A DNA stretch of 64,000 nt, taken from the IMG/VR virus record IMGVR_UViG_3300032287_002972, positions 64,001-128,000 of that record; one strand, written 5' to 3'. The number at the start of each line of letters is the position of its first letter. Positions within the stretch are counted from its first letter, which is position 1. The stretch comes from a virus. A program made the position numbers and the translations under genes. Under the pieces are notes generated by a model. That model was not told the origin of the DNA. It saw only the letters and a list, made by a program, of their open reading frames with translations, and searched no databases. Below, piece after piece: positions 26,947-64,000 of the stretch.

Positions 26947-27056
26947 TTTAATATTTCTATATAAATAGAAAAAAAACTGGAAAATTTTTTTTCACATTTA
27001 CCCATAAAAAGTCGACTTTTAGGATTTTTTCCGGAAAAATTTCTGTTACGGCATTG

Positions 27057-27155
27057 TCCCCCCTCTGGACACATATAAAAAACCCTTATATAAGGGGGGG
27101 TACGGGAGGGGGGTATGGATAGGGGGGTATGGGGGGAATGGTCATAGAGGGGGTA
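27057..27155. other. G-tract junction (G-quadruplex-capable) at the divergent strand switch; candidate genome end or packaging region
   Basis: Six G runs (G7, G3, G6, G6, G6, G5) within about 60 bp of an otherwise very AT-rich genome. Confidence 0.5.
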
Positions 27156-27284
27156 CACTTTGAATCTAAGATAGGTTTGGGTCATTTGTAAGGGTAAACC
27201 CTACATACGGGGGTACGTTCGTCACAATCAATTTATGTACGTTTTAAAGGGGTAAAAATTATTTTAAAAATAAATATAAAAAAG

Positions 27285-27316
27285 TTTGGATTATACAAAA
27301 CTAAATATTATCTTTG
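27285..27316 (+). promoter_or_regulatory. First Bacteroidota sigma70-type early promoter; about 35 similar copies up to 54 kb
   Basis: TTTG-N20-TATCTTTG with A-rich upstream tract; matches the Bacteroides/Flavobacterium -33/-7 consensus. Confidence 0.85.
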
Positions 27317-27357
27317 TCAAGTCGTTATGACATTCACCACTAAAGATTTTTTAACAC

Positions 27358-27612
27358 ATGGAAACAACAATCAATTTTTCTTTCATCGTGACAAGAGACA
27401 CGGTTGAAAATTTCAGAGGTACATTACCTTCAAAATTTTCGACACCACAGGAATTGTGGAAACACATTAAGTACCATTCTGAAAACATTGAATCCTTTGA
27501 GTTAGAAAGGTTCGAATTTGACGTTGACTATAACGGTTGGACAAACAAACTAACCATTGACCAAATTGTCAACGACCCTTTAGAAGATGAGTTTGATATT
27601 GAGTTTGAGTAA
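27358..27612 (+). CDS. Early hypothetical protein (Ala-free, acidic)
   Basis: Lies between promoter and terminator. Confidence 0.75.
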   Translation: METTINFSFIVTRDTVENFRGTLPSKFSTPQELWKHIKYHSENIESFELERFEFDVDYNGWTNKLTIDQIVNDPLEDEFDIEFE

Positions 27613-27627
27613 CCAAACTAAGAATAA

Positions 27628-27750
27628 CCCTACCAATTAGGTGGGGTTATTTTTTTGTCATGTATGTAAACCCTACCAATTAGGTAGGATTAATAAGTTC
27701 TACTGAATAGGTAGGATTAATATGTTCTACTGAATAGGTAGGATTAATTT
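27628..27750. repeat. Short tandem hairpin repeats (CTAC..AATAGGTAGGATTAA); related copies at 28180-28245
   Basis: Four related units seen directly. Confidence 0.7.
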
Positions 27751-27935
27751 AGGGGAAAATGAAATTAGTGGGGCAACGACCTCACCATTCCATGGGGTAC
27801 TTGCCCCACTAAATTTTCCGTGGATACGGGGTAAAAATTATTTTAAAAATAAATATAAAAAAGTTTGGATTATACAAAACTAAATATTATCTTTGTCAAG
27901 TCGTTATGACGTTCACCACTAAAGATTTTTTACTT

Positions 27936-28163
27936 ATGAGTTTATTATTGACCGAGTACCTTACGGTACAAAATGTTCTGAATGAGAAATTTGAGAACCT
28001 ACTCGAAGAGTTCACCACAAACGAATTTGTCACCGAAGTTGGGGACAAAATCTTTGAGGAAACGGGAAAGACGTTTGACGACGAAGAAGTCAAAGAGATG
28101 ATTGGGGAAACGTTGTTTTCTCATCTACTTTTAAATGTATCCTTATTGATTAATAACCAATAA
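27936..28163 (+). CDS. Early hypothetical protein, paralog of 35209
   Basis: TNEFVTEVGDKIFEETG versus TNEFVEEIGDEIFEKTG. Confidence 0.75.
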   Translation: MSLLLTEYLTVQNVLNEKFENLLEEFTTNEFVTEVGDKIFEETGKTFDDEEVKEMIGETLFSHLLLNVSLLINNQ

Positions 28164-28428
28164 GGATACCTTAAAAATACCCTACTGAATAAGTAGGGTA
28201 TTTTTTTGTCATGTATGTAAATCCTATCAAGTAGGTAGGATTAATTTGGGGGAAAATAAAATTAGTGGGGCAAGTACCCTATGGAATGGTGAGGTCGTTG
28301 CCCCACTAAATTTTCCGTGGATACAGGGGTAAAAATTATTTTAAAAAAAGTATAAAATAAATTTGTTTATATCAAACTAATTTTGTATTTTTACGTTATA
28401 ATTATTTCACCACTTAAAATTTATTACC

Positions 28429-28722
28429 ATGAATAAGGTAGATTGGGACTTGACAGATAGTCTAAACTCGTTGTTACAATTGGAAAAAATACCTTTTAAT
28501 GAGGTGTTTCCTTTTTGGGATAAAAACATTGATAAGGTAAAAAATACCTTTTATCCTGAAAGAAATACTACTCATATCAACGAACATGAGTGGTATGAGA
28601 ATAGGTTGTTTGTGTGGTATAATAACAATGTACGGTATGTATCAAGATATATATGTACACAAGACCCTGACGACGGTCTTATATGTGATATAGGTGAGGG
28701 TGTAATGTTATATCCCGAATAA
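28429..28722 (+). CDS. Early hypothetical protein
   Basis: Cassette architecture. Confidence 0.75.
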   Translation: MNKVDWDLTDSLNSLLQLEKIPFNEVFPFWDKNIDKVKNTFYPERNTTHINEHEWYENRLFVWYNNNVRYVSRYICTQDPDDGLICDIGEGVMLYPE

Positions 28723-28936
28723 TCAAAAGACCCCGAATGAAAGTTCGGGGTTCTTTATTGGGAAAATTGGAATTAGTGGGGCAAGTACCCTATGGAATGG
28801 TGAGGTCGTTGCCCCACTAAATTTTCCGTCCACGGTGACGTGAAAAATTATTTTAAAAAAAAAGATAAAATAAATTTGGTTATATCAGAATATAGTTTTA
28901 TCTTTGGGTATTGTTAAAATTAAAAAAAAATCAGTC

Positions 28937-29158
28937 ATGAGAATCAAGGAAAAAATTTCAGAAATCTTAGTTGTATGTTTTTGTTTATTTACCCTTACAG
29001 TAGGGTTGAATATCATTATTGAAAACACATTACCTTTAGGGGTAATTATTTTCAGTTTTATGGTATCAATTTTAACCCTATTACTTAGTGTAGTATTAAT
29101 AGGGTCATGGGTAAAGGAATATAGAGAAGAAAAGAAAAGAAGAAATAGGTCTTTTTAA
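28937..29158 (+). CDS. Early two-TM membrane protein
   Basis: Two hydrophobic segments and a basic tail. Confidence 0.7.
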   Translation: MRIKEKISEILVVCFCLFTLTVGLNIIIENTLPLGVIIFSFMVSILTLLLSVVLIGSWVKEYREEKKRRNRSF

Positions 29159-29420
29159 ACCTAAGACATAGTGGTATGTTTTTGTGTCCCCGACTATTAT
29201 AGTTGGGGATTTTTTTTGTCTGTACTTTTGGTTGACGAGAAGACAATAGTTAAATAAAATTAGTGGGGCAAGTACCCTATGGAATGGTGAGGTCGTTGCC
29301 CCACTAATTTTTCCGTGGACGGTGGTGTAATTTTATTTTTAAAATAATATAAAATAAATTTGGTTATATCAAATATTATTATTAGATTTATACTTTAGTT
29401 AATTACAAAAACAAACAACG

Positions 29421-29741
29421 ATGGAAATTACACAAAAAAAGAAATGGAAACAAACTATTGGAATTAAGGGTTATTATAGACCTATCAATTCCATTGGGGG
29501 TATTAAGTTTACTTACACTGATGAGAAAATTCCCACAAAGAAAATGAGGTCTGAATTAAAGAGATTTAAAAAGATTTTAAGACAACATGAAATTTCTTTT
29601 AGAACGGTTTTCTCTGAAAGTAGTTCACCAAATGTAGGTTACTTTTTTATTGTAGTTAGTCCCGAAAACTTAGAGAAAGGTAGTTACCTTTCTTATCTTT
29701 ATGGTAGAGAGAAAGACGTTCGTTTTTTCTTTAGTTATTAA
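29421..29741 (+). CDS. Early hypothetical protein
   Basis: Cassette architecture. Confidence 0.75.
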   Translation: MEITQKKKWKQTIGIKGYYRPINSIGGIKFTYTDEKIPTKKMRSELKRFKKILRQHEISFRTVFSESSSPNVGYFFIVVSPENLEKGSYLSYLYGREKDVRFFFSY

Positions 29742-29958
29742 TGAAAGACCCCGAATGAAAGTTCGGGGTTCCTTATTGGGTAATACAAAATTAGTGGGGC
29801 AACCGTATGACAGTATGGGGGTAGGTATGACACTTGCCCCACTAATTCGAGTTTGTTCAGGAGGTAAAAAAATTTTTTTAAAATAATATAAGATAAATTT
29901 GGTTATATCGGAAAATAGATTTATCTTTGGGTATTGTTAATTTTTAAAACTTATTACC

Positions 29959-42405: not shown

Positions 42406-42652
42406 TTAATCCCAAAAGTCCGTATCATTTATTTGATACGGATTTTTTATGATCGAAAATGAATTTAGTGAGGCAAACAAAACGTATGACATTGCCCCAC
42501 TAAATTCGGACTTGCTGTTGCTCACTATTAATCTTTTGCCCCACTAAATTTGAACTCTGCACGTGCTGTACTACAAAATAAAAAAAAGTATAAAATAAAT
42601 TTGGTATAATGAAAACTTTGTTATATATTTGTGGTATCAAAAAACAAACAAG

Positions 42653-42907
42653 ATGAAAGATGGAAAAATCACCTTATTAAAAGGTGAAGGAGCTCACCAA
42701 CATACTTTGTATGGTAGGTTTGAGGTCAAAAAAGATTTTACCGATTTTACAGAAGTTGACGTACTCGAATGTCAATTAAGACATGAACTACCAAACGGTA
42801 CATTTGGTGAACACAATACACTAAATGTAGAAAGTGGTGAATGGGTCATGGGTAAACAAGTTGAGTATAATCCTTTGAGTAAAAAGGTTACAAGAATTTG
42901 GGATTAA
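42653..42907 (+). CDS. His-containing small protein of the type seen next to DUF6745 genes
   Basis: GEGAHQH...H.....EH...QVEYNP.....IWD. Confidence 0.6.
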   Translation: MKDGKITLLKGEGAHQHTLYGRFEVKKDFTDFTEVDVLECQLRHELPNGTFGEHNTLNVESGEWVMGKQVEYNPLSKKVTRIWD

Positions 42908-42996
42908 TCAAAAAAAGACTATCTACCTTTACTATATCTTAAATAATGGTAGATAGTCTTTTTATCTTTTTCATTATATTTATAATAAAAAGTATA

Positions 42997-43596
42997 ATGA
43001 AAAAGATAAGAGAAGTTTTAGCACCAAACCAAAAAATTTTTACAACTAAAGGTGAAGAAACATCGTGGTCATTTTTACATGATGTTGAATACAAAAAATA
43101 CGGTAAAACCGTGAGAAGAATAATTAAAGTTAAATGTGAATGTGGTAGAATTAAAGATGTTCAATATAACAACATTCGTGGAGGTCATTCAAAATGTTGT
43201 GGTTTTGATCCTTGTCGAATACCATATAATAAACATAGAAGAAATCCTGAAACCACATATAATGTACTTTATTATACATACAAAAAAGGTGCGTTAAAAA
43301 GACATTTACCTTTTGAATTAAGTATAGACCAATTTAAAACATTTTTAGATAAAAATTGTTTTTATTGTGATGAAATACCTTCAAGTGTATATGAAATTAG
43401 AAACAGTCAAACAGGTAGAATTAGGGCTGGTTTACCATTAACATATAATGGTATTGATAGAATGGATAATAATATTGGATACACGATGGATAATTCCGTA
43501 ACTTGTTGTATTACTTGTAATAGAATGAAACTGGCGTTAGGTTATCAAGATTTTTTAAATCATGTTGAAAAAATATACAAAAAAATGTACAAATAA
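42997..43596 (+). CDS. HNH-type homing endonuclease
   Basis: CECG, CFYC, NGIDRMDNNIGYTMDNSVTCCITCNRMK; own ATATTTATA motif upstream. Confidence 0.8.
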   Translation: MKKIREVLAPNQKIFTTKGEETSWSFLHDVEYKKYGKTVRRIIKVKCECGRIKDVQYNNIRGGHSKCCGFDPCRIPYNKHRRNPETTYNVLYYTYKKGALKRHLPFELSIDQFKTFLDKNCFYCDEIPSSVYEIRNSQTGRIRAGLPLTYNGIDRMDNNIGYTMDNSVTCCITCNRMKLALGYQDFLNHVEKIYKKMYK

Positions 43597-43666
43597 ATTT
43601 GAAAATATAAAATTTATATTTGTATATTTGTGTTGTTATTTACTTATTAACTCAAAAAAATTCATA

Positions 43667-44074
43667 ATGAATCCTGAAGTACATTCAAAAAGTTCAGTAA
43701 AAAGATGGGGTGGTAAAATTTCTGATTATTTGGACATACATATTCTTTTAGATAGTCCAAAATCAACAATGAACAATAATAGTTCAAGGTTACTCACTCA
43801 CAATACATGGTTTGCGTATCACATTATACCCAAAATATTTGGTTACAATATAACCAATAGTGACGGAAAAAGTGTTGATACTGTTGACGTGGCGATGTTA
43901 CACATAGCCGAAGACTTTAGAATGAAATTTGTACCTACCCCACAAGATTATTTAAAACATTTAGATGTTCAACCGTGGATGTGTAATGGTATAAAAGATT
44001 TAGGTAGTAAAGAAGGAACTGAAATTGTTAAAAACTTAAACCAAAAACTAAAAGATGAAAACTCAAACAGTTGA
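43667..44074 (+). CDS. DUF6915-like protein
   Basis: P..HSKSSVKRWGG...DY..IH..LD.....R..TH...HIAED. Confidence 0.7.
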   Translation: MNPEVHSKSSVKRWGGKISDYLDIHILLDSPKSTMNNNSSRLLTHNTWFAYHIIPKIFGYNITNSDGKSVDTVDVAMLHIAEDFRMKFVPTPQDYLKHLDVQPWMCNGIKDLGSKEGTEIVKNLNQKLKDENSNS

Positions 44075-44711
44075 ATTAGAAGAAAGTTTAAAACTATGGA
44101 AAAAATCAATGATTGACCATTGTATTATGGATTTTTCATGTGGTGGTGATTCTATGAATGAATTTACTTTTGTATTTTATGATGAAAATAAAAATGTATT
44201 ACGTTCTGAAGACATTGAAACCATTGATAAATTTTTTGAAGAAGAAGTTTTTGATAAGGTAGATTTTTATGTAAATTCTGACGGTCACTACTTGGGTGAA
44301 TTTGGAACGGTACATATTGAATTGAATAATGATGGTGATGATTTTGAATATTCAAAAGATTCTTCATCTGAATATTCTGAATCCGTTACCGAAGAATTTA
44401 TATTCCAATTAACTGATGATGAGTATGACTTACTTAGTGAAAAAATTTCAGATTTTAATGGTGATACTTCGGGACTTGTTGTAAACTACAATTTGGATTG
44501 TATTATTACCGATAAAGAAATAATCACTATGAATGATTTTGAAAAGAAAATTATTAACTTTGTTCTTGATGTTGAATTTGAACATGGTTTTGAGGAGGCT
44601 CAAGAAGAAAGTGAAACTTTTGAATGTAATGTTCAAGATGTATTAAACGAAAATAAGACGATAGAACTTATTATAACTAGGTCGTATTACGTCACTGTTA
44701 CTAATGATTAA
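44055..44711 (+). CDS. Acidic DUF6878-like protein
   Basis: FSCGGDS...G.FGTV; follows the DUF6915-like gene. Confidence 0.55.
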   Translation: MKTQTVELEESLKLWKKSMIDHCIMDFSCGGDSMNEFTFVFYDENKNVLRSEDIETIDKFFEEEVFDKVDFYVNSDGHYLGEFGTVHIELNNDGDDFEYSKDSSSEYSESVTEEFIFQLTDDEYDLLSEKISDFNGDTSGLVVNYNLDCIITDKEIITMNDFEKKIINFVLDVEFEHGFEEAQEESETFECNVQDVLNENKTIELIITRSYYVTVTND

Positions 44712-44776
44712 TAAATCTATTTAAGAATCCCTAACTATTTTGTTAGGGATTCAAAAACAAAACAAAAACAAACAAG

Positions 44777-45484
44777 ATGAAAATAGTTATTGATAATGTT
44801 GAGTTTCCTTTCAATGAAGGTTGTAAACTCCTCAAACTAAAACATGGTTCAAATACTGAAAGTCCTTTTAAAGAGATTGAAGACTTTTGGAACGAAATTG
44901 AACCATTAACATTTAAAGAAATTATTACCACATTTAATAACGTGGAACAAAGGAGAATAGCCTTATCCTATTTAGGTTTAGAAAATCTTTCAAAAGAAAT
45001 CAATTCTAAATTGGTTTCAAGTGAAACAATTTCAAAAGAAACTACATGGGTCAATAAAGAAGGTGTTACCGAAACAATTAAGTTTGAAGACAAATATGAA
45101 TTATATTCTGTTGACCCAAAAGAATTAGGGTATCATGAACAACACGTTTGGTATAATGGGAGTATCAATATGGGAAATTACCATTACCTTAAATTTAAAG
45201 ATACGTCAACCGATAGAGAATATTTACTTTGGGTGGATTGTGGAAACATAATTAGAACGAAATCCGAAGGAAAAAATAATGATACACATTTACGCACAAT
45301 TCATGTTGACGCCATTGACGCCATCGCATGGACAATTCAAACTAATCTAAAAAAGGGTGACATTGAAAAAATTATCCGTCAAGGTGATTGTATCTTACTG
45401 AAAAGAAAAAAAGGTGTTGAAACTGATGTTGTAAGACATTTAACAAGTGACGAATATCGTTCTTTACTTGTATTGGAAAGTTAA
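44777..45484 (+). CDS. DUF6745-like protein
   Basis: NVEQRR, DTSTDREYLLWV, AIAWT, RQGD. Confidence 0.6.
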   Translation: MKIVIDNVEFPFNEGCKLLKLKHGSNTESPFKEIEDFWNEIEPLTFKEIITTFNNVEQRRIALSYLGLENLSKEINSKLVSSETISKETTWVNKEGVTETIKFEDKYELYSVDPKELGYHEQHVWYNGSINMGNYHYLKFKDTSTDREYLLWVDCGNIIRTKSEGKNNDTHLRTIHVDAIDAIAWTIQTNLKKGDIEKIIRQGDCILLKRKKGVETDVVRHLTSDEYRSLLVLES

Positions 45485-58144: not shown

Positions 58145-58166
58145 TAATGTTCCACGTGGAACATTA
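58145..58166. promoter_or_regulatory. parS: parS-like perfect palindrome
   Basis: TAA-TGTTCCACGTGGAACA-TTA; close to the chromosomal parS consensus TGTTTCACGTGAAACA. Confidence 0.7.
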
Positions 58167-58499: not shown

Positions 58500-59240
58500 T
58501 TATTTATTTAAAGTTAGTCTAATCTTTTTTTTACCTTTAGTTAATTCACTAATTTTTCTTCTTGTTTCTTCAGAATGTTTTTTACCTTTAGCAGATTCAC
58601 TTAATTTTCTCTTATGTTCTTCTGAAAATATTTTACCTTTAGCAGCTTCACTCATTCTTCTTTTTGTTTCATCAGACATATTCTGTTTTGCTTCACTCAT
58701 TCTTCTTTTCGTTTCTTCGGATATGTTCTGTTTAATTTCACACATCTTTTTTCTTGTTTCTTCAGAATGTTTTTTACCTATAAGGGACAAACTTATATTT
58801 CTCTTATGTTCTTCTGAATGTAATTTACCTTTACGAGATTCACTCATGTTTCTCTTATGTTCTTCAGAAAATGGTTTACGAGAGTTAGACTCCTTTTTAC
58901 TTTCAGGTATGAGTCCAAATATTCTTCCAAACACTTTCCTATCCTCAATAGATTTTCTATTGTTAACAGATTTTATTATCTTATTAATTTCAAGAACATT
59001 TATATTTTCAGTTTCACTTAGAATGGTTTCAGGTATCCCCATTATAAAACATGAAGTATATAGATACATGTCTCTACATTCAACATGTAAACTATTATAG
59101 GATTTTATTCCAATGTTATGATATTCTTTATATTCTACATCGAAAATATCTTTAATAATTCGTTTAGAAATACTTAATGAAATCACATATTCATCCATTG
59201 TGGTATTAGATGAAAAATTCATACAATTTAATCCTTTCAT
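58500..59240 (-). CDS. NUMOD3 repeat DNA-binding protein (homing-endonuclease-like)
   Basis: Repeated [14 protein letters not shown] / [10 protein letters not shown]; no clear nuclease motif. Confidence 0.8.
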
Positions 59241-62200
59241 ATTAATGTGTTTTGTTTTATTTTGAAATGAAATTCTATTTGACTATATAGTTGGACACGT
59301 AATCTATCACGTGATTCAATAAAAAAATGAACACCTATTTGATTACGTACTTCATTATATAAATGAACACCTATTTGATTACGTACTTCATTATATAATA
59401 TATTAATTATTTGGTTACGTATTTGGTCACTAATTATCTTCATATGTTTTGTTTTACTTTAGTATATAGAGGTACGCGTACATCCATATGTATTTTAAGT
59501 TGTACATCATCATACACTTGGTCACGTACTCTACCAATCACTTGTCTTACAGCTTTTCTAAATAAATTTTCTAATATAGTTTCTTCTAAACTATGGTTTA
59601 TTTTTTCACTTATTGGTCTCATGTTAATATATTGTTTGGTTAATCATTTGAGGTTGATATATATATGTTATTACATAAATCATTATTTACTTTAGATGTT
59701 ACTTGGGTGCGTATTTCATTATATAATTGAACATTTATTTGTTTATGTAATTTAAAATTTACCTCTTGATGTATCCGATTATTTGTTTGGCCATATAATT
59801 TATTACTTATATGTCTACATATTTGTTTATGTGTCTTATTCATACATATTGTTTTAGTTGAAGGGTTATTCGTATAGTTACTTGACTATATACGTTATTA
59901 TGTAATTGAACATTTATTTGTTTACATACTTGATTACTTTCTGATTTCATGAATAATATTATGTTTTAATTGAACATTTACCTCATCACTTATTTGTGCC
60001 CATAATTTATTACTTATTTGAAGATGTAGATGAACAATTACGTTATCAAATACATGTTTATTTAATTGACCACGTATTTGATTTAATAGTTGGTCACGTA
60101 CTTGGTTATTTAGTGATTTCATATTAATCTATTTTGTTTTAGTTGAAGGGTTATTCGTATAGTTATTTGACTATATACGTTATTATGTAATTGAACATTT
60201 ATTTGTTTACGTACATTTATATGTACGTTAGACCTTACTCTCGCATTATTATGAACTTTTTCATTTATTTGTTTACATACTTGATTACTTACTGATTTCA
60301 TATTTTTTCCCTGAATTTAAATTCTATTTGATTACATACTTGACCATGTATTCGGTCACGACCAACGGGAAGTTTTTCCAGTATTTTATTATATAATTTA
60401 GTACTTACTCTCGAAGGGATTTTTTTATACATTTCAATATAAAATATTTTAATAAAAAATAGAAAATATATTTTGTAATATACTTGTTTCATGTGTTTTC
60501 TTATAGTTGTTCCCATACTTTATTACTTATTTGTAACCATATTTGACCCCATACTTGGCCACTTACTCGATTAGATACTTGACCACCTACTTGTTCATAT
60601 AATCCGTTATCTACATTATTATTTACTTGTTTATGTAGTTTCTTACGTATTTGATTAGATACCTGTTCATATACTTGGTTATCTACCGGTCCCATATTAA
60701 TCTGTTTTGTTTTATTTGTTCCCATATTTGATTACTAACTCTAATACTTACTCCATCACGTACATCATTATTTACCTGTTTATATAATAGATTATGTACT
60801 TGATGATTTAATTTAAAACATACTTGTTCATATATTTGGTTTCTTACTTTTTTCATATTACTTTGTTTTGTTTATGTGGATTCGACAATTGTCTATGTAA
60901 TTGGTCACTTAATTGTATCCATACTTGTCTATTTACTTGACCCCATATTTGTATTTGTAATTGGTTAGTTACTTGACCCCATATTTGTATTTGTACTTGA
61001 TGACGTACATTAGTATTTACTTGGTCATCAAGTACAAGACCAATTTGATTACGCATCTGAATACGTACTCGTTCATCAATTTTTTTACTTACTGATTTCA
61101 TATGTTTCTACACTTACTTGGTCATATAATTTATCACTTATCTGATTACTTACTTGGTTATATATTTGTTCAAATGTTTCACCATTTACTTGATTACCTA
61201 CTTCAGTATATACTTCACCATATACTTGAATATGAAATCTATTATTTACTTTATCCCATACTTGATTACATATTTTGTTATTTACTGTTTCCATATGTTT
61301 CGTTTTAATTGATTACTTGTTTGCGCACGTATTTGATTAAAAATCTCATAACCTATGTGGCCCATTATTTGTATCCATAATTGTTTATGGATATGGTCAT
61401 ATACTTGTTTATCTAATCGACCACGTATATTATATGATACTATCTCACTTATATGAGAACTTACTGACCCCATTTTATTTTCTACTAAGTTCATATTAAT
61501 CTACAATTGTTTTAACAATTCACTGTACATTTTATTCCATATTTGGTTAATTAGATGAAGACGTACTTGATTACCCACTTGATCAGATACTTGAACACTT
61601 ATTTTATCACGTACTTCAATATATGCCTGAACAACTATTTGGTTATGTATTTGTTTAGTCATTTTATTACTTACTGTTTTCATATGTTTTTAGGTTTCTT
61701 ACTTGATTTCTTACTTGGTACTTTAATTCACTATAATTTTGACCATATACTTGATTATCTACCGGTTCTCTAATTTGTTTACTTACTTGACTATATATTT
61801 GGATACTCACTTGGTCCCATGCTCGATTATTCATTTTTAACCTCAATTGAGTATGTATTTCTTTACGTATTTTTTTTCTTACCGATTTCATATCTTTCCA
61901 AATATTTGATTACTCATTTGTCCCCTTATTTGACTACTTACTTGATTATATACTTGAATAGTAATCTGATTACTTACTTTATCAACTACTTGGTCACATA
62001 TTTTATTATTTACGTGACTATATATTTGGATAGTTAAATAATCACGTAATTGTGTCTGTTGATTAAACAATCTAATATTCATATGTTTATTTTAGTTTGA
62101 AAACCTATTTGTCTACCACGTTCTTGCTCATATAGTTTATCATATACTTGGTCATATATTTTTTTATTTACTTGGTTAAATATTTGGTGATATATTTTTT

Positions 62201-64000
62201 TATTTACTTGACTATATATTTGGATAATTAGTCCATCACGTAGTTGTGTCTGTCCCAGTTTCATAACGTTATGTTTTGTTCTATTTGGGAATATAATTGA
62301 TTACGTAATTGAATCCATATTTGTGAACGTAAATTAATATGAAAAGGTTCACTTAACTTATCCTGTATTTTATCATATACATGATAATATATGTGGTAAT
62401 TAATATCTTTACTTACTTTTTTCATAATGATTTATTCGTTCACTTACAATTTCATGTACTGGGTCGACAAATTGAATATCAACTTGTTCATTTACTTTTT
62501 CGTACACTTCTCCAACGACTATGTTACATATATTAAACGGTACTTCAACTATCATTTGTGCATACATTTGGTCAAATACCCCACGAGATATTTTATGATA
62601 TACTTGTCCATCAATCGATTTCATAATGTGTTCTGTTTTATTTCCTTATGTATTTGTACTTGTTCACGTACATTAGAAGATATTTGTACTTGAACTTGGT
62701 CACATATCTCATCATATATTTGGGTTTTTATTTGTTTAAATAATTGAATGTCCAATTGATTAAAAAACACCTCATCATTTAAACGTAAACGTATATCAAT
62801 ACGAATTTGTTTACATATTTTATCTTTTACTGATTCCATATGTTTTAATTGAATATATAGTTGAGAAACCTATCAATTAAATCCCAAATTGGTGTCTTTT
62901 TTTTCCTTTGAAGTTCTACTTGAATAATAACTGGACTATTCATTTTACCACATACTTGACTCCATACTTGGCTACTCATTATCCTAACTATATCATAACG
63001 TATATGGTTATATATGTGTCCATGTACTCGTTTATATAATTTATCACGTACTTGATTATCTACATGTTCAAGTATTTGTCCTCTTACTGATTTCATATCG
63101 TTTGTTTTATGTGAATATGTACTTGTTCAGATACTTGAGTTTCAACATTATCATATAACCCTTTACTTACTTGTTCACCTACTTGATAATATATATCATT
63201 ATTCATTTTACTCCATACTTGGTTTTGTAATTGATTATGTACTTGATTACGTACTTGGTCATTTACAATATTTTTTACTTGTTTCATATGTTTTCTTTAA
63301 ATTGAGATTCCACATTTTCTAAAACTATATAAAATTGACCATATACCAACCCACTAATATATTTAAATATTTCAGAGTCTCTGAAATATAGATCACGTAT
63401 AGAATATGTATGATGACCTATTTGGGGATATGATCTACTATTTATTAGACGAATTAATTCTTTATCTAATCGTTTGGTTATTTGTTCAGATACTCCCTTC
63501 ATATGTTTCTTTAACTTGCACTTCCACATTGTTTAATCGATTAATTACCATATCACTAATATGATTGTATAGTTTAATACGTGATTTATTATACGCTTCT
63601 CTATGTGGTCCATATACTTCCTTACGTACAATTTTATATAATACAATACGTATTTCTTCACTAACTCGTTTCATATGTTTTGTTTTAGTTGTTTAGTTAC
63701 TTGTTCACGTAATTGATTATCAATTTGACCCCATACTATATTATACATTTGATAACGTACTTCGTCACTTACTGTGCAATATATTCGACCATTTATTTGT
63801 CCACATAATCTTTCATATACTTCATGATTTATTATCCTCATAGTACAATGTAGTCTTTTAGTTGATTATTTATTTGTTCCTGTATTTTAAGAATCGTACC
63901 TACAAATATTTGTTCATTTACTATTTCATATATTTCACTAGACACTTGCTCACTTAATCGGTAACGTACTTGTTCCTTTGTTTGCTCACGTAATTTACCA
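59237..64000 (-). repeat. Tandem array of more than 20 paralogous small genes (about 55-85 aa) with QVxx tetrad repeats; continues past the window edge
   Basis: Track ORFs with left coordinates 59237, 59440, 59640, 59934, 60119, 60298, 60501, 60853, 61085, 61282, 61501, 61667, 61888, 62079, 62409, 62621, 62845, 63093, 63284, 63486 plus shorter units; recurrent MKSV/MKQV/METV starts, ATGA coupling, 12-bp periodic CAAGTA. Confidence 0.85.

Follow-up and report, generated by a model that had tools for sequence, protein, structure and literature searches.

Seventy-nine coupled microprotein genes of a phage, best read as a detached and multiplied DUF6745 tetrapeptide tract

Proteins of the family DUF6745 (PF20530; phrog_31813) and a small partner protein with a His motif occur widely in phages and prophages, and no function has been described for either. 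In the typical form, such as gp174 of Microcystis phage Ma-LMM01 beside gp175, the protein contains an internal tract of tetrapeptides. Searches of the literature found nothing naming DUF6745 and nothing on Ma-LMM01 gp174. Another phage protein built from such units is gp54 of mycobacteriophage Tweety, which carries 40-48 AAxx tetrapeptides (PMC2884959, PMC9262239), and the number of these is reported in a review to tune counter-defence (PMC9262239). Here we describe an array of 79 small tetrapeptide-repeat genes which, in the best reading, is the DUF6745 tract detached from its core protein and multiplied. It was found in a stretch of 64,000 nucleotides (the window), positions 64001-128000 of IMG/VR virus record IMGVR_UViG_3300032287_002972, a viral contig of 167,990 bp with 27.5% GC and an estimated completeness of 50% (G000). 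Coordinates are those of the window unless marked as genome.

The complete array comprises 79 coupled genes on the minus strand (15,843 bp, genome 139079-123237), and the window carries the last 25 of them, genes 55-79. A previous reading of the window, made from the sequence only, had described more than 20 tandem repeat microproteins at 59237-64000. The array is real, with 24 complete open reading frames (ORFs) and one cut by the window edge, but it lies on the minus strand and is about three times larger than the window shows, running on to genome 139079. ORFs of at least 50 amino acids (aa) starting with ATG occupy 94% of 59237-64000, compared with 1.7% (maximum 12%) in shuffled sequences. 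Two ORFs of the first call were removed, one being an off-frame overlap (genome 130860-131015) and the other a partial junction duplicate (genome 128441-128560). This is the largest array counted, most other loci having been viewed only within 10 kb. Its parts are as follows.

Genome 128001-139079, minus strand: array genes 1-54, outside the window, with TAnnTTTG promoter-like sites before genes 6 and 21
63838-(64050), 63671-63841, 63486-63674, 63284-63502, 63093-63287, 62845-63096, minus strand: array genes 55-60
63838-64000, minus strand: the part of array gene 55 that lies inside the window, cut by its edge
63093-63287, minus strand: array gene 59, coding for 16 unbroken tetrads (64 aa) and modelled with the DUF6745 core
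62621-62839, 62409-62624, 62261-62425, 62079-62264, 61888-62082, 61667-61891, minus strand: array genes 61-66
62261-62839, minus strand: older block duplication, genes 61, 62 and 63 resembling the upstream genes 32, 33 and 35 at 58, 63 and 53% identity
61501-61683, 61282-61494, 61085-61294, 60853-61101, 60683-60856, 60501-60695, minus strand: array genes 67-72
60298-60492, 60119-60301, 59934-60122, 59840-59950, 59640-59843, 59440-59622, 59237-59443, minus strand: array genes 73-79
59840-60301, minus strand: recent duplication in which gene 76 (59840-59950; 36 aa, with an internal deletion) is 89% identical to gene 74 (60119-60301)

The median gene product is 65 aa long and successive starts are a median of 195 bp apart. 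At 44 of the 78 junctions stop and start overlap as ATGA, and at 70 the genes overlap or are no more than 10 nt apart. The products are diverse (median pairwise identity 24%) but share a strict period: the autocorrelation of V/I/L gives z values of 36, 30, 30 and 26 at lags 4, 8, 12 and 16, and the Fourier peak is at 4.0, with no signal at 3.6. The register is fixed from the start codon (V4, 8, 12 and so on) in 64 of the 79 genes, and the tetrad consensus is Q-[VIL]-R/Y/S-N/D/E, the first position being Q in 40% only. The coupled units of about 190 bp and the four-residue period that had been reported earlier were therefore recovered, as were both peptides then quoted (63093-63287 and 60501-60695); the supposedly typical start MK(S/Q/T)V was not, as it is present in exactly that form in 25 of 79 genes, while M-x-x-[VIL] is present in 65. 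Upstream of the array starts the sequence is A-rich at -3, -6 and -11 to -13, as it is before the long genes of the phage.

The gene to which the array most plausibly belongs lies outside the window, together with its partner.

Genome 140581-141534, minus strand: DUF6745-clade core, full-length (317 aa), without internal repeat, 1.5 kb upstream of the array, with TTTG-TAnnTTTG about 42 nt upstream
Genome 140166-140555, minus strand: His-motif partner, 129 aa

The core matched the PF20530 profile with 25.4 bits (E 9.7e-6), under the gathering threshold of 27 bits, which homologs with a full tract exceed (P0091, 99.7 bits). Its fold was predicted with high confidence (pLDDT 92) and matched the DUF6745 protein gp174 of Ma-LMM01 (BFVD, E 5e-15), a DUF6745 cluster of the ESM Atlas (TM 0.74) and phrog_31813 (E 6e-8). 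The His-motif partner flanks DUF6745 in 67 of 88 loci. In the core, the interval between the DSP and WxxFY motifs is 42 residues, compared with 75-275 in fused relatives, so the internal tetrapeptide tract is lacking; relatives at 50-60% identity have a QV-x-D/N tract between the two motifs, and the close relatives of the core are without it. Among solved structures, fold searches found no clear counterpart of the core (Foldseek best E 0.058; VIA best Z 5.0, to the C-terminal sheet), which does not in itself establish a novel fold, and NCBIfam and PADLOC searches gave weak sub-threshold matches only, with no toxin fold or defence family.

The array proteins and the internal DUF6745 tracts are related. 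The tract consensus, Q (85%)-V (85%)-R/G/W-D/N, has the same register as the array tetrads, and the array proteins combine the strict Q-[VIL]-x-x register with a profile match to the tract. When an array profile was searched against 1.84 billion representatives, 137 of the best 150 matches were DUF6745-clade proteins, with tracts of 7-77 tetrads. The sequence-only reading had placed QV repeats at the N-termini of DUF6745 proteins; the kinship holds, but the repeat is internal to the N-terminal domain and not at the terminus.

The distribution across phages links the two further. Among 47 DUF6745 clusters (70% identity), at least two free repeat genes were present near 12 of 13 repeat-less clusters but near only 1 of 34 repeat-bearing ones (Fisher 3e-9, kinship ignored). 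For two repeat-less loci whose surroundings held few free genes or none, arrays lay elsewhere in the genome (18 and 11 matches), while in two fused-type genomes the array profile matched only at DUF6745. Contigs of cellular genomes showed the same pattern, with fused forms and no array. The SVWN or NVWD tetrads of other split lineages also occur in fused forms. The tree required 8 changes of state, 7 of them forced by well-supported branches; as this was a quick, midpoint-rooted tree, the direction from fused to split is a matter of parsimony and is not shown. In one of the loci (L044:4880-8687), the N-terminal half of DUF6745, a MoxR-like AAA gene, free tetrad genes and a DUF2201 metallopeptidase-vWA gene stand in one run.

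Binding of an array peptide to the core is supported by a predicted complex, modelled for 1 of the 79 members. The core with gene 59 (63093-63287) scored 0.87, compared with 0.01 for the best of three controls; 58 of 80 solved complexes attained the score mark, as did 2 of 110 mismatched pairs, counts that are valid no more than roughly when our own alignments are used. Repeated runs shared at least 97% of contacts, and the pLDDT of the peptide was 91. On its own, the product of gene 59 was predicted as one long helix (Atlas model, pLDDT 0.67). In the model, contacts span the whole peptide, involving the V/I/L position in 16 of 16 tetrads, the Q position in 16, the third in 14 and the fourth in 4, and this contact along the whole length would account for the period of 4.0 and for the narrow range of gene lengths, about 16 tetrads. 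The interface covers core residues 3-177, including the loop where fused forms insert their tract, and is 59% hydrophobic (vs 29%). The core has a charge of -18 and the array peptides a median of +4. The core residues in contact are retained in both fused and repeat-less DUF6745 proteins. Action in trans on a DUF6745 protein, as proposed earlier, is thus favoured by the co-occurrence pattern and this one model, though with a different partner from the one then named.

That partner, a DUF6745-like gene inside the window, was rejected on domain content.

44777-45484, plus strand: distant homolog of the C-terminal half of DUF6745, probably not part of the array system

Its product aligns only to core residues 216-317 and is without the N-terminal domain that carries the modelled interface; the gene that fits is the one at genome 140581-141534. 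As it also has its own partner homolog at 42629, it can be regarded as a separate, truncated relative. It belongs to a second DUF6745-like set on the plus strand (42629-45484), with a His-motif partner homolog (42629-42907, E 5e-11), a DUF6915 gene (43562-44074) and a gene for an acidic protein of 218 aa. The 44777 homolog ends in an RQGD motif, like the start of the partner. Elsewhere, three small ORFs just upstream of the DUF6745 gene (G000:C1:141695-142333, minus strand; L001:18696-19334) resemble degenerate array members, and in the ESM Atlas DUF6745 is also fused to leucine-rich repeats in cyanobacteria (a cluster of 72 members).

The array genes are selectively maintained. They were aligned to DNA of related phages without demanding an intact frame in the partner sequence, and the 586 substitutions in 56 pairs included 1 stop gain, where 36.6 were expected, and 3 net frameshifts. 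The frames therefore stay open while residues vary, as had been noticed from the sequence, and stops do not accumulate at neutral rates. The V/I/L position changes least (8.1% vs 12.5%, p 0.002), and radical changes affect 2.0% of V/I/L positions against 5.9% of x positions (p 1e-5); the tetrad phase was taken from one sequence per pair, so the test is mildly circular. The constant hydrophobic stripe with more variable outer positions, which had been proposed before, is in agreement with this and with the period of 4.0. The ratio of nonsynonymous to synonymous substitution rates (dN/dS) was 0.75 for the pooled array by simple counting and about 0.5 when corrected for composition, compared with 0.04-0.07 for DUF6745. 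With values of about 0.5-0.75, positive selection is therefore not shown. Higher ratios of 2.07 (three G000-L085 pairs) and 8.5 (within L069) were non-significant or are probably due to repeat shuffling, and a case with 31 nonsynonymous and 4 synonymous changes had p 0.12.

Turnover of the array is rapid. In a phage whose DUF6745 is 88% identical (synonymous divergence, dS, 1.3), only 3 of 36 sampled array genes were at least 60% identical, their order was altered and their dS was 0.03. Such a low divergence beside that of DUF6745 points to recent exchange of array genes among phage lineages. A chimeric array gene is visible at L086:20033. Patches of DNA shared between array genes were offset by multiples of 12 nt in 26 of 31 cases, although such in-register likeness is partly expected from the repeat itself. 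Variation by diversity-generating retroelements (DGRs), also considered in the sequence-only reading, found no support: there was no reverse transcriptase in G000 (about 50% complete) or in five further phages with arrays, of which three are at least 90% complete, and no adenine bias, as 66% of differences involve A in the array genes (44% A) compared with 59% in the DUF6745 control (36% A).

The host is inferred to be one of the Bacteroidota. TAnnTTTG, the -7 promoter element of Bacteroidota (PMC6847099), is up to 7-fold enriched 20-40 nt upstream of the genes of this phage, and Shine-Dalgarno motifs are nearly missing ahead of the array genes. The capsid protein, which is T4-like and about 31% identical to that of Flavobacterium immuto phages (in a comparison with cultured isolates), fits the same setting. 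Scans for sigma-70 promoters and terminators did no better than chance.

Taken together, we consider it probable that the locus encodes one core with a library of plug-in subunits. In most phages the DUF6745 protein has 7-77 internal tetrads and stands beside the small His-motif partner; the lineage described here has core and partner without the tract, and units of about 16 tetrads are encoded as 79 coupled, presumably co-translated genes. Each helical microprotein could dock on the N-terminal domain of the core with its stripes of Q and of V/I/L, the register being fixed by the start codon and mainly the fourth tetrad position being left outward, and a stripe that winds round the helix would suit the wrapping of a partner. 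One core could then form many complexes with different surfaces, and new library members could arise by tandem duplication, by in-register recombination of patches and by exchange among lineages. There is perhaps an even chance that the genes of the complex are transcribed by the RNA polymerase of a Bacteroidota host and that the variable surface of the complex engages variable host factors in counter-defence or host takeover, a reading suggested by the rapid turnover, the lineage exchange, the host-type promoters and the analogy with Tweety gp54. More tentatively, DUF6745 and the His-motif partner could be a core enzyme or adaptor with interchangeable helical specificity subunits. A slippage locus that offers one variant at a time would then have become, in several lineages independently, a set of as many as about 80 subunits kept in parallel and passed from phage to phage, with each subunit directing the core to its own host target or defence protein; we hold this to be possible but rather less likely than its opposite.

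Several observations weigh against the library as described. The composition-corrected dN/dS is below 1 at every tetrad position, so the per-position comparison gave no support to an arms race by positive selection. The complex was modelled for a single member, and the two halves of a split gene can pass such a test by likeness (no solved DUF6745 structure was found, but predicted fused proteins may contribute). A model of a fused form renders the tract as a hairpin (pLDDT about 60) that is too uncertain to speak for docking in cis, and in our own model the variable third position is mostly in contact with the core. One genome is an exception to the split pattern, as the fused-type L023 carries several weak, degenerate free tetrad genes; these are scattered over L023:2655-17881 of a 334-kb phage and possibly represent an intermediate between fused and split states. 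Finally, no target or activity has been described for DUF6745.

The array genes could alternatively serve dosage. Their products would then be equivalent to one another, each an obligate subunit or a chaperone of the core or of a core-based polymer, with many copies for amount, drift at the free positions and divergence as a guard against recombinational collapse. A dN/dS that is never significantly above 1 would suit this, as would the 1-2 free genes found near DUF6745 in some repeat-less phages (L013, L049, L070). However, dosage sits badly with 79 peptide genes per core gene, all kept open, and the few genes shared with the phage of 88% identical core, at so low a dS, fit the trading of variants better than drift, so that we think this explanation unlikely. 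Improbable to a greater degree is a library of antidotes or decoys, in which the peptides would neutralise the DUF6745 of competitor phages or restrain the phage's own core, as orphan immunity arrays do. In its favour, the acquired interbacterial defence clusters of Bacteroidales (doi 10.1101/471110) likewise consist of small, diverse tandem genes that are exchanged, the residues of the docking site are conserved throughout DUF6745, and the third tetrad position, though variable, is in contact with the core. Fused-type phages would profit from such a defence as well, yet arrays are almost confined to genomes whose DUF6745 lacks the tract, and the core matched no toxin fold or defence family.

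The peptides could also act independently of DUF6745, by self-assembly as a right-handed coiled coil or co-polymer or as free inhibitors of host proteins. They are predicted single helices with a constant stripe, and arrays can lie far from the DUF6745 gene. Known right-handed coiled coils have a period of 3.67-3.75 (11/3 or 15/4), which 4.0 over 16 tetrads exceeds. As independent action would leave unexplained both the near-exclusive link with repeat-less DUF6745 and the complex model, we give it little credence. Hardly credible at all is that the genes are silent cassettes, as vls-type donors or DGR templates would be, or neutral junk left to decay after repeat slippage. The shared patches in steps of 12 nt and a few truncated copies could be taken that way, but the genes have their own starts, coupling and A-rich initiation regions, stop gains are purged, a cassette would find no tract to enter in the local DUF6745, and the six genomes searched have no reverse transcriptase.

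Downstream, the array operon is closed by another gene.

58500-59240, minus strand: homing-endonuclease-like gene with NUMOD3 repeats, last of the operon, sharing 4 nt with the stop end of the final array gene

Related arrays hold a NUMOD3 gene with a GIY-YIG-like start or an HNH gene (L086:17984-18727; L085:13864-14217), and such coupled endonuclease genes might promote exchange of array segments. A terminator-like hairpin (58145-58166) lies between the array operon and the plus-strand block that converges on it. In composition, the array is strongly depleted of GpC (observed/expected 0.23, compared with 0.45 for the genome), second only to a GpC-poor zone at about 27000-37000, and alanine makes up 0.6% of its proteins; the same depletion of GpC and alanine is present in L085 and L086 but not in L004-L011.

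Compared with the systems described so far, the nearest is the fused DUF6745, which has the same core fold, His-motif partner, x-V-x-x register and residue classes. The difference is that here the tract is missing from the core and is encoded as 79 separate and far more diverse genes. Tweety gp54 shares with the array a 12-bp unit, two constant and two variable positions and variation tied to phage-host conflict, but it has an alanine-based repeat, other flanks, no match to DUF6745 or any other Pfam family and a copy number tuned within one gene. It was rejected as a homolog on the lack of a DUF6745 match, the absence of Tweety from tblastn matches of DUF6745 queries and the low alanine of the array, and its likeness is one of analogy, not membership. 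The Bacteroidales acquired defence arrays are likewise tandem small exchanged genes that are thought to bind a protein partner; the members of the phage array are all paralogous versions of a single repeat and are linked to a partner gene in the same genome, with no toxin known. DGRs also generate multiple versions of a small surface while keeping its scaffold constant, whereas here there is no reverse transcriptase, template-variable pair or adenine bias, and the variants are stored side by side as genes. In contrast to the silent cassettes of vls-type conversion, the would-be donors have starts and coupling, and the core is without a matching variable tract. An architecture in which a repeat is externalised into a putative library of subunits was not described in the literature searched and appears to be new. 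The split form shows what the variable tract of this widespread family probably does physically, which is to dock on the N-terminal domain; it would explain the strict period of 4.0 and offers 79 natural variants for one constant core, making the family directly testable. If the subunits set specificity, this would be a way of storing diversity unlike that of DGRs, invertons or slippage loci, as about 16 kb is spent on keeping all variants present at once, each as a gene of 65 residues.

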